Source: Spirochaetia bacterium (GTDB lineage Bacteria; Spirochaetota; Spirochaetia; DSM-2461). From it: a stretch of 64,000 nt of DNA. The position numbers and the translations under genes were made by a program. How positions within the stretch are numbered: position 1 is the first letter of the stretch; each line of letters opens with the position of its first letter. The stretch covers positions 288,001 through 352,000 of the forward strand of contig OY764216.1 in NCBI GenBank assembly GCA_963668315.1, read 5' to 3'. Shown here piece after piece: positions 30,643 to 59,102 of this stretch. The notes below the pieces were generated by a model. That model made no database searches and had not been told where the DNA came from. It was given only the letters and a program-made list of their open reading frames with translations.

Positions 30643-31728
30643 CTACCGATCGGGAGAAAAGGGCAGGATAACGGTAAAAACAGCGCCCTTTCCCGGTCCC
30701 TCCGATTCCGCACAGATCTCTCCTCCGTGGGCGGAGACGATTTTACCGGCAATGGATAGTCCCAGGCCGGAACCGGTCTCCCGGTCAGAGCGGCTGCGCG
30801 CTTTATCCGCCTTATGGAACCGGTCGAATATGAAGGGAAGCTCTTCCCGGGGCACGCCGGCCCCCTCATTGCTCAGGGTGACGGTCAGGAAACGATCCCC
30901 GGGGCGGAGGGAAAAGCTTATCTCCCCGCCGGGGGGAGTAAATTTCACCGCATTATGAAAAAGATTATTCCAGACGCGCACCAGAAGATCCCGGTCGGCC
31001 CGGATTGTCTCTTCGGAAAGATCAACAAGGACATTCTGATTTTTCTCTCTCCACTGGGGTTCATAATGAAGCACCACTTCCCTGATCTGTCTGTCCAGCC
31101 TGTAGTCCCTCAGACTCAGCATCAGATCGGGAGATTCCAGCCTTGTCATAGAGAGCAGATCCTCGCTCAACCGTGAGAGGCGGAGACTCTCGTCCTCTAT
31201 GATTTCCAGATAGTCCCTCCGTTTATCCGGCTCCAGCTCTTCCTCCTTGAGTATCCGCGCAAACCCCCGTATGGATGTGAGAGGAGACTGGATTTCATGG
31301 GACATGTCGGAAATAAAGTTCTGCCGCATCTCCTCGGCCTGCCTGAGGGAATCGGTCATCTCATTCAGACCGCCCACCAGCCGGTCGAAGTGGCCGTGGC
31401 CGTCATGAATATTAAGATCGATGTCATAATCACCCCGGGCTATCTTGCCGAAGGCTTCGGCAAGCTGAACGAAAGGATCGTCGCGGCGGGGCCGGTGGAA
31501 ATGAAGGAGGATTTTTCCTTCCCCGAGAATCACAACGACGGACAGAAGAAAAAGGAACGTGAACCCGAGAAGTTCCGGTGCGGTCCAGCCGATTCTCCTG
31601 TATAGAACGTGCAGCATCAGAGAGGCCAGTACCCCATGTCCCCATAAATACAGCAGCCCCAATACAGTTCTGCCGAGAATGGCCCACATATCTCCGGAGC
31701 GGAGGCGGGACGGCGTTTTCCTCTTCAC
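30643..31728 (-). CDS. HAMP sensor histidine kinase (HssS/HitS-like, intramembrane-sensing)
   Basis: Two TMs with a short loop, HAMP, SHEIQSPLTSIRGF, NLFHNAVKF, GSGLGLSI. Confidence 0.92.
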   Translation of the reverse strand: MKRKTPSRLRSGDMWAILGRTVLGLLYLWGHGVLASLMLHVLYRRIGWTAPELLGFTFLFLLSVVVILGEGKILLHFHRPRRDDPFVQLAEAFGKIARGDYDIDLNIHDGHGHFDRLVGGLNEMTDSLRQAEEMRQNFISDMSHEIQSPLTSIRGFARILKEEELEPDKRRDYLEIIEDESLRLSRLSEDLLSMTRLESPDLMLSLRDYRLDRQIREVVLHYEPQWREKNQNVLVDLSEETIRADRDLLVRVWNNLFHNAVKFTPPGGEISFSLRPGDRFLTVTLSNEGAGVPREELPFIFDRFHKADKARSRSDRETGSGLGLSIAGKIVSAHGGEICAESEGPGKGAVFTVILPFSPDR

Positions 31729-32399
31729 GGTTTCACCGCCAGCCTATAGCCCAGCCCCCTCACCGTCTGGAGAGTGAAAGGATACCTGTCAGGGGGAAAG
31801 CGGTCCCGTAATCTGTTAATATGAACGTCCACGGTTCTTTCCGTCCCGTCGAAATCGTAACCCCAGATATCCTCAAGGATCTGTTCCCGGGTGAATGTCC
31901 TCCCCGGTGATCCGGCCAGTTTGAAAAGCAGCTCAAATTCCTTTCGGGGAATATCTCTGGCAACGCCGGCCTCTATGACTTCGTAGCGGCCCCCCTCAAG
32001 GACGAGATGGCCCAGCGTCCTCCTCTGGGAGGCCTCCACGCCGGATCTTCTCAGAAGAGCTCTGACCCGGGCCAGCAGCTCGGGGGCCTCAAAAGGCTTG
32101 ACCAGATAATCGTCGCCCCCCAGTTCCAGCCCCTTGACCTTGTCTACCGTCTGACCTTTGGCGGAAAGCATGAGGAGGGGAAAATCCCACATCGCCCTTA
32201 TCCGCCGGCAGAGTTCCCAGCCGTCCATACGGGGCATCATGATATCCAGAACAGCCAGAGAGACACTCACTTCGTCCAGCAGGGCCAGAGCCTCTTCCCC
32301 GTCGCAGGCGGTAAGCACCTCGAATCCGGCGGTGCTCAGGACATGGGAGACAAGCTGCCGGATATGTTCGTCATCGTCGACAATCAGTATGCGCGTCAT
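31725..32399 (-). CDS. OmpR-family response regulator (HssR/HitR-like)
   Basis: IVDDD, LDIMMP, KPF, ERTVDVHINRLR, TVRGLGY. Confidence 0.94.
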   Translation of the reverse strand: MTRILIVDDDEHIRQLVSHVLSTAGFEVLTACDGEEALALLDEVSVSLAVLDIMMPRMDGWELCRRIRAMWDFPLLMLSAKGQTVDKVKGLELGGDDYLVKPFEAPELLARVRALLRRSGVEASQRRTLGHLVLEGGRYEVIEAGVARDIPRKEFELLFKLAGSPGRTFTREQILEDIWGYDFDGTERTVDVHINRLRDRFPPDRYPFTLQTVRGLGYRLAVKP

Positions 32400-35002: not shown

Positions 35003-36676
35003 CTACAGAGAGAAAATGGCCGCCTCCCAGGGACGCAGCCGCCGGCAGCCCGGTTTCTCCCAGCCGGGATAGTTCCCCAGAAGGCGCGTTCCCGCAGCGG
35101 CTTTGAGCTTTCGGGGCAGCCGGAAATATTTTCTCCTCGATGTAAAATTCAAGACAACAAGGAGAGTTTCTCCCTCCTGGGAGCGGGTATAGGCGACGAC
35201 AGGCTTATCCGGGGAGGTGAGCAATTCATATTCGCCGTAGACCATGGCGGGATGCTTCTTTCTCAGGGAGATCAGTTCCCGGTAGAAGTACCATATGGAA
35301 TTCCCGTCCTTCCGGGCCCTTTCCACATTGATCTCTGCATAATTGGGGTTCACCCTGATCCAGGGAGTTCCCGTGGTAAAACCCGCATGGGCGGAATCGT
35401 CCCACTGCATGGGAGTCCGGGCATTCTCCCGTGTCCATTTCCGCCAGCGGGACAGAAAGCTCTCTTCCGACTCCCCCTGGGCGGCACATTTCGCCCAGTC
35501 ATTCCTGAGGGCGACATCATTGATATCATCCATCCGCTCGAAGGGAACATTCGTCATTCCGATCTCCTCCCCCTGGTAGATATAGGGGGAACCGGGCATG
35601 GTATGAAGATAGGCACCCAGCAGCTTGGCCGATTCGATCCGGTACTCGGCGTCATCTCCCCAGACGGAAACCTGCCGGGGAAGATCGTGATTATTGAAGA
35701 ACTGACTGTTCCAGCCCCTGCCCCAGGTCGCATCATACCATCTCTGCTGAATACGGTTGAGCTGCCCGATTCTCTTCTTTGAGGGGAATTGCCGGGGCAG
35801 GCCGCAAATCTCAAAGTGAAAGATCATATTGAGTTCCTCCCTTTCGGGAGCGACGTAATCGCAGGCCATGGCCGGGGTGGTCATATTCATCTCGGCCACA
35901 GTCATCACATCGTATCGGGATAGAGCCTTTTGATACATCTCGTGGAAAATACCGTGCAGACCGGGGTTATGGGAGTATAGCTCCTCGTCCAGCACATAGC
36001 CGTCCTGATGGGTCGGAGCCTTTTTCGAATCGGGGAAGCCCTCGGGTTTCTGCATCAGATGCACCGCGTCCATGCGGAATCCATCGATTCCCTTGTCGAG
36101 CCACCACGTCATCATATTCAGGATTTCGCTTCTCAGCCCGGGGCAGTCCCAGTTCAGATCGGGCTGCTTCCGGCTGAAGAAATGCAGGTAATACTCGCCT
36201 GTGGCCTCATCATACTCCCAGGCGGAACCGTGGAAGAGAGATTCCCAGTTATTGGGGGGCCGTCTCTTACCATCTTCCATCCGGCCCGGCCGCCATACAT
36301 AATAGTCCCGGAAGGGGTTATCCAGGCTCTTCCGGGATTCAACGAACCAGGGATGCTCATCGGATGAGTGGTTTACTACCAGGTCCATAATCAGCTTGAT
36401 ACCCCGGCGATGGCACTGTTCAAGGAGTGTTTCCCAGTCCTCCATCGTGCCGAACTCATCCATTATATCCCGGTAATCGGAGATATCGTAGCCATTATCG
36501 TCGTTGGGCGATTTGTAGACCGGATTCAGCCAGATCACATCAATGCCCAGATCTTTAAGATAATCAAGCCGGGAAATCACACCGGGAATATCACCGATCC
36601 CGTCTCCGTCGGAATCCATAAAACTCCGTACATAAACCTGATATATAACCGCTTCTTTCCACCATGCTTTTTCCAA
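35003..36676 (-). CDS. GH13 oligo-1,6-glucosidase / alpha-glucosidase
   Basis: DLVVNH, QPDLNW, DGFRMDAV, VAE, FNNHD, YQGEEIGM, RTPMQW; TTG start with SD GAGGAG. Confidence 0.94.
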   Translation of the reverse strand: MEKAWWKEAVIYQVYVRSFMDSDGDGIGDIPGVISRLDYLKDLGIDVIWLNPVYKSPNDDNGYDISDYRDIMDEFGTMEDWETLLEQCHRRGIKLIMDLVVNHSSDEHPWFVESRKSLDNPFRDYYVWRPGRMEDGKRRPPNNWESLFHGSAWEYDEATGEYYLHFFSRKQPDLNWDCPGLRSEILNMMTWWLDKGIDGFRMDAVHLMQKPEGFPDSKKAPTHQDGYVLDEELYSHNPGLHGIFHEMYQKALSRYDVMTVAEMNMTTPAMACDYVAPEREELNMIFHFEICGLPRQFPSKKRIGQLNRIQQRWYDATWGRGWNSQFFNNHDLPRQVSVWGDDAEYRIESAKLLGAYLHTMPGSPYIYQGEEIGMTNVPFERMDDINDVALRNDWAKCAAQGESEESFLSRWRKWTRENARTPMQWDDSAHAGFTTGTPWIRVNPNYAEINVERARKDGNSIWYFYRELISLRKKHPAMVYGEYELLTSPDKPVVAYTRSQEGETLLVVLNFTSRRKYFRLPRKLKAAAGTRLLGNYPGWEKPGCRRLRPWEAAIFSL

Positions 36677-36723: not shown

Positions 36724-36764
36724 AGTATAAAAGAGGATTTCAGATTACGCAATCGTTTGCATAA
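36724..36764 (-). promoter_or_regulatory. Glucosidase promoter with LacI-family operator over the -35
   Basis: TTGCGT-N17-TATACT; palindrome TTATGCAAACGATTGCGTAA (36745-36764) with central AAACG. Confidence 0.72.
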
Positions 36765-36789: not shown

Positions 36790-36819
36790 AAAGAAAAGGG
36801 CCTGCAACGCAGGCCCTTT
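36790..36819 (-). terminator. Intrinsic terminator with no upstream CDS on this strand
   Basis: AAAGGGCCTGC-GTT-GCAGGCCCTTTTCTTT. Confidence 0.8.
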
Positions 36820-36899
36820 AAGGAGGGAGTTCTTATGAAAAAAAAGTTCACATTCTAGTTAAATGTTGTTCTTTTCCGGGACATTGTCCCTGTGCTGTT
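36790..36899 (-). ncRNA. Candidate trans-acting sRNA with anti-SD/anti-AUG seed
   Basis: -10 TATATT at 36906-11, 5' hairpin 36878-90, unpaired UUUUUUUUCAUAAGAACUCCCUCCUU, terminator 36790-36819. Confidence 0.6.
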
Positions 36900-36983
36900 G
36901 AGATAAATATAATCTATGAGCCTTTCCCCAACATTACCGTACCGTTACATTGATGTAATATTCTTTTGATAATGTCACAAAGG

Positions 36984-38185
36984 TTTGACATAATTTTCTG
37001 AAATATCGGGTTTTCCCCTCAAAAAATCCTCCCTTCTATTAGTGACTTGAAAGAAGGAGGTTCACATTGTCCAATCAGATTTACTGCCCTAATCCGAAGT
37101 GCGTTAATCATCCTCATACATCTGAAAGCAATTCCTGGATACGTAAGAAGGGCTTTGTAAAAACAAAGAGGGATGGCATGGTTCAACGTTATCAATGCAA
37201 GGACTGTTTATCCACATTCTCTCTATCTTATTTCACAATAGACCATTATGTTCAAAAGAAGCTTTCTTATCCCACCCTTCTGAACCATCTTGTCAGCGGT
37301 TCAGGCATCAGAGATATGGCGCGGGCCATGCATTCCTCACCCAGTATCATCACGAACCGCATTCAACGTCTGTCGAAGAGAATAACTTCTGTATGTCCTA
37401 AGGAAATCCATGATTTGGAGCTCAGTGAATCGGTGGCCGCCGACGGGTTGGAAAACTTCATTCTCTCCCAGTATTTCCCGACCAATGTAAATATCCTGGC
37501 CGGTCAACGATCCCAATTTATCTACACCTTCAATGCCTACCACTTTAAACGTAAGGGAGCCTGCACAGAAGAACAGAAAAAAAGAAAATCAGAGCTCTAT
37601 GAATCAGCCTTGTTTGAGAAGGGAGCTGCCTCCCGGAGTTTCAGGGAGATACTGCGCTTTCTTTCGGAAAAATCAGAAAAATCTTCCTTGCCCTCAGTTA
37701 TTCTTGATACGGATGAACACCCCATCTATCGCCATCAGTTTGAACAATACGAATTTCTTTCACACAAAATACGCCACAGAAGGACGAACTCCCGAATAGA
37801 ACGGAATTATCAAAACAAATTATTTCCCTGCAACTATATAGACAGACAGATAAGAAAGGATTTAGCCGAATATATACGGGAGACGGTTCAGTTTGGAAGA
37901 AATATGAATAACAGTATGGACAGATTTTCCTGCTACTGCTTCTGGCATAATTTCCTTAAACCTTTTCGAATAAATAAAAGGAACAGAAAATACCTTACAC
38001 ATAGTCACGCTGCGGGTTTTACACCGGAAAAAAACAGGGAGATAATTAACGAGGTTTTCCATGGATGCAGAAAAAGAGAAGAGGATTTTATGGAGTATCT
38101 TACGGATTTTCAGAAAGCTCACTGGAAGAGAACTCTTCTGAATCCGTTAAATAAAAAAGCGGTCTAGGAACGAATTGATGTCAAA
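36984..38185 (+). mobile_element. Putative insertion sequence, about 1.2 kb, IS1-like
   Basis: Low-GC segment; imperfect terminal IRs TTTGACAT-AATT / AATTG-ATGTCAAA; no clear target duplication. Confidence 0.6.
37067..38167 (+). CDS. IS1-like DDE transposase with N-terminal zinc ribbon and HTH
   Basis: CPNPKC...QRYQCKDC, GSGIRDMAR HTH, ADGLE, DTDEHPIY, NYIDRQIRK; TTG start with SD AAGGAGG. Confidence 0.8.
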   Translation: MSNQIYCPNPKCVNHPHTSESNSWIRKKGFVKTKRDGMVQRYQCKDCLSTFSLSYFTIDHYVQKKLSYPTLLNHLVSGSGIRDMARAMHSSPSIITNRIQRLSKRITSVCPKEIHDLELSESVAADGLENFILSQYFPTNVNILAGQRSQFIYTFNAYHFKRKGACTEEQKKRKSELYESALFEKGAASRSFREILRFLSEKSEKSSLPSVILDTDEHPIYRHQFEQYEFLSHKIRHRRTNSRIERNYQNKLFPCNYIDRQIRKDLAEYIRETVQFGRNMNNSMDRFSCYCFWHNFLKPFRINKRNRKYLTHSHAAGFTPEKNREIINEVFHGCRKREEDFMEYLTDFQKAHWKRTLLNPLNKKAV

Positions 38186-38328
38186 GAATAAGAACATTAA
38201 GAAAGATGCTCTCCAATTGTTCTTTCCCTTGACCATAAGGCAATTTCAGGTTTACCATTTTTCCATCACCTGCGGATCTCCCGATCTATCCTTGCACGCC
38301 GTATGCGGCATCATACCCGGAGGGGTAC

Positions 38329-58106: not shown

Positions 58107-59102
58107 TTAGATCTGGATACGGGCGTTAAGCGCCGCCCCCAGACTGCCGCTGGACACATTGTACATGGCTGTAAGATCAAGCTTCAACACAACGATATTG
58201 AAACTGCATCCGCCCCAGACTCTCAGAGAGCCGCCGTTGGCTTCGGAAATGATGCTGAATCCGGAATTGGAAATATCCATATCCAGGGCATCCTCTATGG
58301 CTGAAATCTGAGAATCAGTCAAAGGAGTCGTTCCATCGGAGGTGACACTGGCATCGATACCGCCGCCGGCGGAAGAGAAACCGTAGGAGTAGCCCACACC
58401 CACGCTGGGAGTGAGGATCAGGAAGCTCTTGCTGGCCTGGGCCTTCACATCGATAATGTTGGCGCTCCAGTTATAGTACATATCTCCTTCACTCAAGGTA
58501 ATATCAGTTACTCCATTATAGTTGGCTCCTCCAAAATCAATAGTCCTGCTCGGAGTAATCCCATCCATATAGATACCGCCCGTCAGGTAGTTATACCCCA
58601 CACCAACAGAAACGGAAGGAAGAATCAGACCGCCCTTCACGACACCCCAGCGGACATCTCCCCCGAGCATCATATAGTCGATTCCCACGCCGCCGGTCAT
58701 ATCTTCCAGCATGCCGGGACTAAGAAATCCGCCTTTCACTCCCACGTCGATGGGCAGAATGGGAATTCCCACCCGGGCATCGACGGTATAGGCGGGAAGG
58801 GGTACCCCCAGGCTTCCCGTCACAAAAGAGGGCAGATCCACCCCGAGCTGTGTTGCCACCGCTTCGAAAGAGTCGGAAGGAAGGGAGACGAAACCCGTCG
58901 TCAGCCCGACGCCGAAATGGGGAAAACCTCCCAGATAGGCATCGCTCCAATTCAATCCCAGCGTGCTGGCGTAGGGAAGAGCCCCTGCCATATCGTCGGA
59001 AAAATCCTTGAAATCAGATTCCAGACTGCTGTACGTAATTTGAGCTGTAGCAAAACCTGCAGCCATCATCATAATCATTAATGTTAGTAGTAATTTTTTC
59101 AT
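58107..59102 (-). CDS. Exported, probable beta-barrel outer-membrane protein
   Basis: Signal peptide MKK...ATA, amphipathic strands, C-terminal NARIQI, SD GGAGG. Confidence 0.75.
   Translation of the reverse strand: MKKLLLTLMIMMMAAGFATAQITYSSLESDFKDFSDDMAGALPYASTLGLNWSDAYLGGFPHFGVGLTTGFVSLPSDSFEAVATQLGVDLPSFVTGSLGVPLPAYTVDARVGIPILPIDVGVKGGFLSPGMLEDMTGGVGIDYMMLGGDVRWGVVKGGLILPSVSVGVGYNYLTGGIYMDGITPSRTIDFGGANYNGVTDITLSEGDMYYNWSANIIDVKAQASKSFLILTPSVGVGYSYGFSSAGGGIDASVTSDGTTPLTDSQISAIEDALDMDISNSGFSIISEANGGSLRVWGGCSFNIVVLKLDLTAMYNVSSGSLGAALNARIQI

Follow-up and report, generated by a model that had tools for sequence, protein, structure and literature searches.

The closest known system to the locus described here is that of the CiaR-dependent csRNAs (Ccn sRNAs) of Streptococcus (Rfam RF02379). 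According to the available excerpts of PMC3091779, this family consists of five siblings, shares the CiaR regulon with htrA and has no Hfq; a direct repeat with the box NTTAAG-N5-TTTAAG ends 10 nt before the -10 hexamer, and a stretch complementary to the Shine-Dalgarno (SD) site as well as to the start codon is located between two stem-loops. The csRNAs act additively on comC, and the excerpted PMC4507080 names transporters among their further targets. A second point of reference is LhrC of Listeria (RF00616), a multicopy, LisRK-dependent and envelope-stress-induced sRNA whose CU-rich sites block the translation of a surface-protein mRNA (PMC4132741, in excerpt). The envelope-stress sRNAs FoxI of Fusobacterium and MicA/RybB/MicL represent repressing arms of their regulons and lower the translation of envelope proteins (excerpt of PMC9546586).

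The spirochaete unit reported here lies in a window of 64,000 nt, the whole stretch of DNA that was analysed (G000:C1:288001-352000, G000 being this genome). From sequence comparison it is very probably a regulator-dependent sRNA, and we consider it likely that it acts in trans and forms the repressing side of a response to envelope (secretion) stress; we infer that it is transcribed, that it represses and that stress induces it. The elements of the unit are as follows:

36955..36958, minus: inverted half-site (TTAC) of the regulator element; TTAC in 7 of 10 siblings
36922..36949, minus: three direct repeats with an 11-bp period, predicted OmpR-family activator site in place of a -35; boxes TGTAAC (36949-44), GGTAAT (36938-33) and GGAAAG (36927-22)
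36906..36911, minus: -10 hexamer TATATT; shared by 8 of 10 siblings, the remaining two having TATACT and TAAACT
36790..36899, minus: predicted sRNA of 110 nt, start placed by prediction 7 nt 3' of the -10
36878..36890, minus: 5' hairpin; predicted at the corresponding position for 5 of 6 genus orthologues
36820..36848, minus: seed, composed of a U-run (anti-lysine codons), CAU (anti-AUG) and a CU-rich anti-SD part
36790..36819, minus: intrinsic terminator with an 11-bp stem (36819-36795), a 3-nt loop and a U tail
36835..36858, plus: 7-codon ORF MKKKFTF, a by-product of the seed and no conserved gene

The initial annotation had proposed the -10 hexamer, the 5' hairpin (36890-36878), the strong terminator and the location of the MKKKFTF frame, all of which were recovered; a recognisable -35 was sought in the promoter of the unit at 36790-36958 and is absent, as had been stated. 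Its palindrome at 36945-36958 is correctly positioned and consists of the TTAC half-site and the first box, but it is only one end of a four-part repeat element. The predicted RNA, with a folding energy of -35.2 kcal/mol (z -4.06; equalled by 2 of 200 shuffles), adopts the 5' hairpin, a weak middle stem and the terminator. The seed had been described as unstructured, which holds for its anti-SD part (mean unpaired probability 0.91) but not for the U-run and CAU, which are partly bound in the weak stem (0.23; opening cost 4.45 kcal/mol); the U-run values range from 0.23 to 0.73 across siblings. The orthologue G002:C232 has a different predicted 5' fold. DNA contigs of run X1, possibly the source sample, cover the unit without differences, and those of run X4 provide no cover at this position.

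The unit is flanked on one side by an alpha-glucosidase gene (35003-36676, minus), which begins on the same strand 114 nt beyond the terminator, and on the other by an insertion sequence of 1234 bp (36968-38201). This element encodes an IS1-like transposase (NF033558, below cut-off), counts five near-identical copies in the genome, together with about six distantly related elements, and landed 10 nt upstream of the regulator element, which was left intact. A further palindrome at 36745-36764, which we take to be of the LacI type, precedes the glucosidase gene and has look-alikes in G002 and G003.

A homologue search detected five copies in all three other genomes of the genus (BLAST, 60 relatives; E 1e-8 to 1e-14), and no genuine homologue outside the genus was found among these relatives. 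Four paralogues in the own genome bring the number to ten copies in four genomes; each of the four has a 5' hairpin, a seed and a terminator:

G000:C1 ~4460590, minus: sibling sRNA
G000:C1 ~3861315, minus: sibling sRNA
G000:C1 ~4077620, plus: sibling sRNA
G000:C1 ~4551620, plus: sibling sRNA

Promoter, UUUUUCA(U/A)AA plus CU-rich seed and terminator are retained in all ten copies. Conservation of the seed in relatives had been set beforehand as one of the tests on which the proposal could fail; the seed is present in 10/10 copies, one of which has CAA for CAU, and it is the most conserved block in alignments A1 and A3. The seed and the 5' end hardly vary across copies, whereas the middle is variable, resulting in RNA lengths from 92 to 146 nt. 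The adjacent glucosidases are 71-79% identical, and the DNA flanking the sRNA copies differs. The exact seed pattern occurs at two loci among the genome contigs, namely the G003 copy and a clostridial gene start, and has no match in the metagenome contigs. A scan for seed plus hairpin retained six sites among 224 seed matches and missed two known siblings; the fifth of its control triplets, which overlapped the seed, is not independent. Outside the genus the RNA model yields only weak matches, in seven non-genus genomes out of 151 at E up to 0.02, none of them preceded by the promoter motif and at least two of them true gene starts, so that documentation of the sibling family proper is confined to the genus.

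An alignment of the six promoters needs no gaps, and its conserved columns are the mostly invariant inverted half-site, the three repeats with their 11-bp period and the -10 hexamer; the third repeat ends 10 nt before the -10 in all ten copies. A matrix based on these promoters, only one of which stems from G000, picks out eight sites of this genome that score 26-50 bits; the best of the remainder scores 17.6 bits. They correspond to the five siblings, a sixth, CU-rich RNA and two degP/htrA genes, whose products exceed the cut-off of TIGR02037, and four of the new sites coincide with independent covariance-model matches. Neither the siblings nor the htrA regulon had been noticed in the initial annotation. 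The sixth RNA (L094:5352-5457, minus; G000:C1 ~2125457) has 106 nt, is terminated (z -6.3) and is also present in G001 (L127). It is of another design, nearer to LhrC, with two CUCUCC tracts, one of them inside a large terminator loop. In all four genus genomes the second htrA gene carries a long leader in which a short, conserved hydrophobic stretch resembling an ORF immediately precedes the start (L154, L156, L160, L157). PhoB control, which the box spacing suggested, was rejected: the eight sites stand in front of RNAs and htrA, and phosphate genes were not observed among them.

A derived pattern of 53 nt is present in 11 of 38 family genomes (at most two mismatches) and in 28 of 401 class genomes (at most one mismatch), G000 included in both counts and the reversed control at 0; since the pattern was tuned on the G000 sites, only matches in other genomes count as tests. 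We examined 55 distinct sites outside G000, a subset of all matches, 11 from the genus and 44 from beyond. The former lead five seed RNAs, five htrA genes and the CU-rich RNA. Among the latter, 26 lead htrA, 15 of these directly behind a kinase gene, and 18 lead other things; an RNA with this exact seed was found behind none of the 44. Candidate short terminated RNAs whose anti-SD tracts differ in sequence follow the motif in two other families. Two motif-led RNAs of about 65 nt carry a CCUCCU tract (L187, L188), and two longer ones with CAUCUACC(U/C)CCCC lie beside the htrA operon (L193, L194). Other motif-led genes across the class (L143, L151, L153, L166, L167, L181-L184, L196) encode, as judged by eye from the translations, ATPases (MoxR-like, ABC and P-type) and an FtsH-like protease, and they possibly belong to a wider regulon.

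The frequent localization of the motif in regulator-kinase-htrA operons points to a regulator of the OmpR family. For seven regulators taken from operons of this kind, the best match in G000 is one and the same (52-55% identity, next at most 41%), namely the OmpR-family protein at C1:4370900-4371583, which is directly followed by its kinase and which, judged from this operon context, is the putative ligand of the repeat motif. A pair within the window (30643-32399), presumably HssR-like, was rejected with only 35-41% identity to the htrA-linked regulators. Of 151 class genomes, 49 contain the candidate at E below 1e-60; genus g5 has neither the regulator (0/3 genomes) nor the motif (0/11). In NCBIfam the regulator comes closest to the heavy-metal family TIGR01387 without reaching its cut-off (259.7 vs 279.2), and for this reason the signal could be a metal.

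The resemblance to the csRNAs is one of wiring and seed. Five siblings, htrA in the regulon and the absence of Hfq are common to both families as far as the excerpts of PMC3091779 describe them. The ten copies share the distance of 10 nt between repeat and -10; a stretch against SD and start codon lies between two stem-loops, with the U-run partly paired in some copies. Co-regulation of htrA is suggested by the two TIGR02037 genes and by the 26 of 44 non-genus sites. The Rfam csRNA consensus AcUUUUUUCAUAA...CUCCu corresponds almost letter for letter to this seed. The hosts belong to different phyla. The excerpted csRNA box TTTAAG-N5-TTTAAG contrasts with a TGTAAT-type box in triplicate (TGTAAY / DGWAAK / NGMAAN) plus an inverted half-site, and the csRNA nonamer (A/C)UCCUAAA(A/C) forms no conserved block in alignments A1 and A3, as inspected by eye. 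The recognition helix of the candidate regulator, VVDVLVSRLRSRI, differs from VVEVYVSKVRKKL of CiaR in the available text and does not identify it as a CiaR orthologue, in a comparison that covered the C1:4370900 regulator, beside which the genome has 19 other OmpR-type regulators. The RF02379 model scores 22.5 bits at this locus and 24.3 bits at best in the genome, with a cut-off of 57 bits. In terms of sequence the unit is no member of the csRNA family.

Likeness to LhrC would consist in the multicopy state, the dependence on a two-component system, the link to envelope stress and the CU-rich translation block, as the latter are described in the excerpt of PMC4132741. LhrC possesses three redundant CU-rich sites, whereas the present RNA has one extended seed reaching into the coding region, and its RF00616 score of 18.1 against 110 bits places it outside this family. 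The best Rfam alignment is that to MmgR/SuhB (RF00519; 26.9 bits, cut-off 41), which is achieved via anti-SD stretch and terminator, with the anti-AUG module absent from the displayed alignment. At gathering threshold, Rfam has no match over the window, and weak ones appear only at E up to 10. CpxQ of enterobacteria is reportedly the repressing arm of an envelope-stress regulon. Together with FoxI and MicA/RybB/MicL it follows, as far as the available accounts go, the logic proposed here, and differs by its control through sigma-E or CpxR; Rfam matches to any of these RNAs were absent.

The choice of targets was investigated with gene starts, signal peptides and solute-binding proteins assigned by a heuristic caller, which kept 4082 of 4472 genes after score and length filters. 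The enrichment of exported proteins proposed by the initial annotation was confirmed: starts with SD plus ATGAAAAA are of the exported type in 105 of 162 cases (65%) compared with 381 of 2242 others (17%; charge-blind, p 6e-38), and they include 23 of the 49 solute-binding-like genes. A ranking of all starts by duplex energy has 61 signal-peptide genes in its top 200 (base 14.5%, p 2e-9), and the anti-SD part alone retrieves 24. Twelve controls with a randomised U-run side reach 7-19 of the top 100 compared with 26 for the real seed. These weaker enrichments indicate that the seed segment facing the coding region confers the export selectivity. The very best duplexes are only weakly enriched (6 of the top 25, p 0.14), and the top match is a cytoplasmic-type protein. 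The two look-alike starts named in the initial annotation are located where it placed them (19727-48 and 59102) but are poor targets, ranking 289 and 969 of 4082; the 19740 protein indeed has an OmpA domain, whereas the supposed OMP at 59102 has only a weak Pfam match to DUF6588. With G:U pairing the predicted reach would extend to about 207 of the 486 exported-type genes in G000. No Hfq was found in the genome, and a KhpA-type KH protein is present. The earlier idea of an activator-dependent, free-standing sRNA aimed at exported starts of the MKK type is consistent with all comparative tests.

A real regulator-dependent sRNA could also have a few specific targets or answer to another signal, such as a metal or a nutrient, without being a class-wide brake under envelope stress. 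The predicted best targets differ between siblings, and for regulator and kinase alike the nearest families are heavy-metal two-component ones, albeit below cut-off. For the streptococcal counterparts, the excerpts of PMC11478796 and PMC4507080 report few targets and effects of Ccn deletions on zinc resistance, and it is this tie to zinc in the former that keeps a metal under consideration. Conversely, htrA is the most constant partner of the motif across the class (26/44 sites), and within the seed it is the generic part that varies least. We therefore regard the explanation by few targets or another signal as rather unlikely.

That the unit is merely a 5' leader or attenuator of the alpha-glucosidase gene is very improbable. 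One copy is indeed located upstream of a glucosidase in 4/4 genus genomes. In G001, however, a convergent gene intervenes between the two, and the second copies in G002 and G003 as well as three of the four paralogues face convergent genes, which argues against a leader; the glucosidase also has its own LacI-type palindrome. Hardly more credible is the plus-strand micro-ORF offered as an alternative by the initial annotation, a leader peptide or type I toxin to which the minus-strand RNA would be the cis-antisense. This copy has a perfect SD and an ATG, but the ten frames comprise 7, 15, 15, 58 (open-ended), 33, 49, 24, 35, 9 and 27 codons, begin in one case with TTG, and share no peptide past MKK. 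The reading is rejected on this lack of a common peptide in frames of 7 to 58 codons; moreover, a hairpin directly precedes the SD and the conserved promoter points the opposite way.

A decayed start of an exported-protein gene beside a two-way terminator, with no RNA function, would explain why the RNA model also matches true MKK gene starts in relatives (L050, L051, L055, L060, L062), but it is scarcely plausible given that ten copies retain the spaced four-part promoter on the opposite strand and that the stems vary with compensation across copies. In the terminator, 8 of 11 pairs have changed on both sides among six orthologues; covariation amounts to 0.558 compared with 0.263 after shuffling (0/500 shuffles reach the score; slid controls at most 0.25 vs 0.56), a value that rests on six related sequences and is to be read as supportive, not as a probability. 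The 9 of 11 compensatory pairs in alignment A4 weigh less, because this alignment contains one spurious row and was fitted to the model.

The combination of seed and terminator is not confined to the motif-led siblings. L074 (G000:C1:4740799-4740883, plus) is a further sRNA candidate, in which U-run, CAU, CUUCC and terminator follow a promoter of ordinary sigma-70-like type; the unit is kept without the motif in all four genus genomes (L083, L084, L085). L078 (G000:C1:228085-228141, minus) likewise has seed and terminator without the motif and is near-identical in G002 (L088). Seed-like tracts are also found directly after stop codons and before terminators (L076, L047, L213, L202, L048, L049, L053), namely behind an ABC permease gene in G000, htrA in G017, G019 and G066, and other genes in g5. 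The htrA 3' UTRs of three other genera have the seed-plus-terminator design, and these tracts possibly represent sRNAs derived from 3' UTRs.

For the preferred reading, a regulator-dependent sRNA acting in trans within an envelope-stress response, we propose the following mechanism. On an envelope signal, the regulator at C1:4370900 would, to judge from its operon context, bind the direct repeats and activate sigma-70 promoters that have no -35. It would thereby turn on both DegP/HtrA proteases along with five or more sibling sRNAs; these share the motif, which suggests their co-induction. Each sRNA would then cover the SD, the AUG and the A-rich basic codons that come first in its mRNAs, as complementarity and enrichment indicate. 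Because signal peptides begin with such codons, the seed would select exported proteins as a class, ABC solute-binding proteins probably prominent among them. Ribosomes would be kept from loading onto many of the corresponding mRNAs, translation would drop and the export load would be eased while HtrA clears misfolded protein, and the siblings are probably additive in effect.

A search of the open literature, with subscription journals outside its scope, retrieved no description of this spirochaete regulon. It is conceivable, and we suggest it tentatively as somewhat short of an even chance, that the streptococcal circuit and nearly the same seed evolved independently in spirochaetes, and that SD, AUG and A-rich basic codons constitute a signal-peptide barcode by which the class of exported proteins is throttled. 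The reuse of the seed-plus-terminator module under other promoters and in 3' UTRs, including that of htrA, is part of this proposal; if it is true, the streptococcal U-run would have the same purpose. The locus thus provides a candidate envelope-stress regulon for free-living spirochaetes, comprising a regulator, a DNA motif, htrA targets and a family of sibling sRNAs, with an apparent cross-phylum convergence with the streptococcal csRNAs in seed and wiring. It leads to the testable idea that an sRNA may choose a whole protein class by the basic-start codons of signal peptides, with no need of gene-specific sites.
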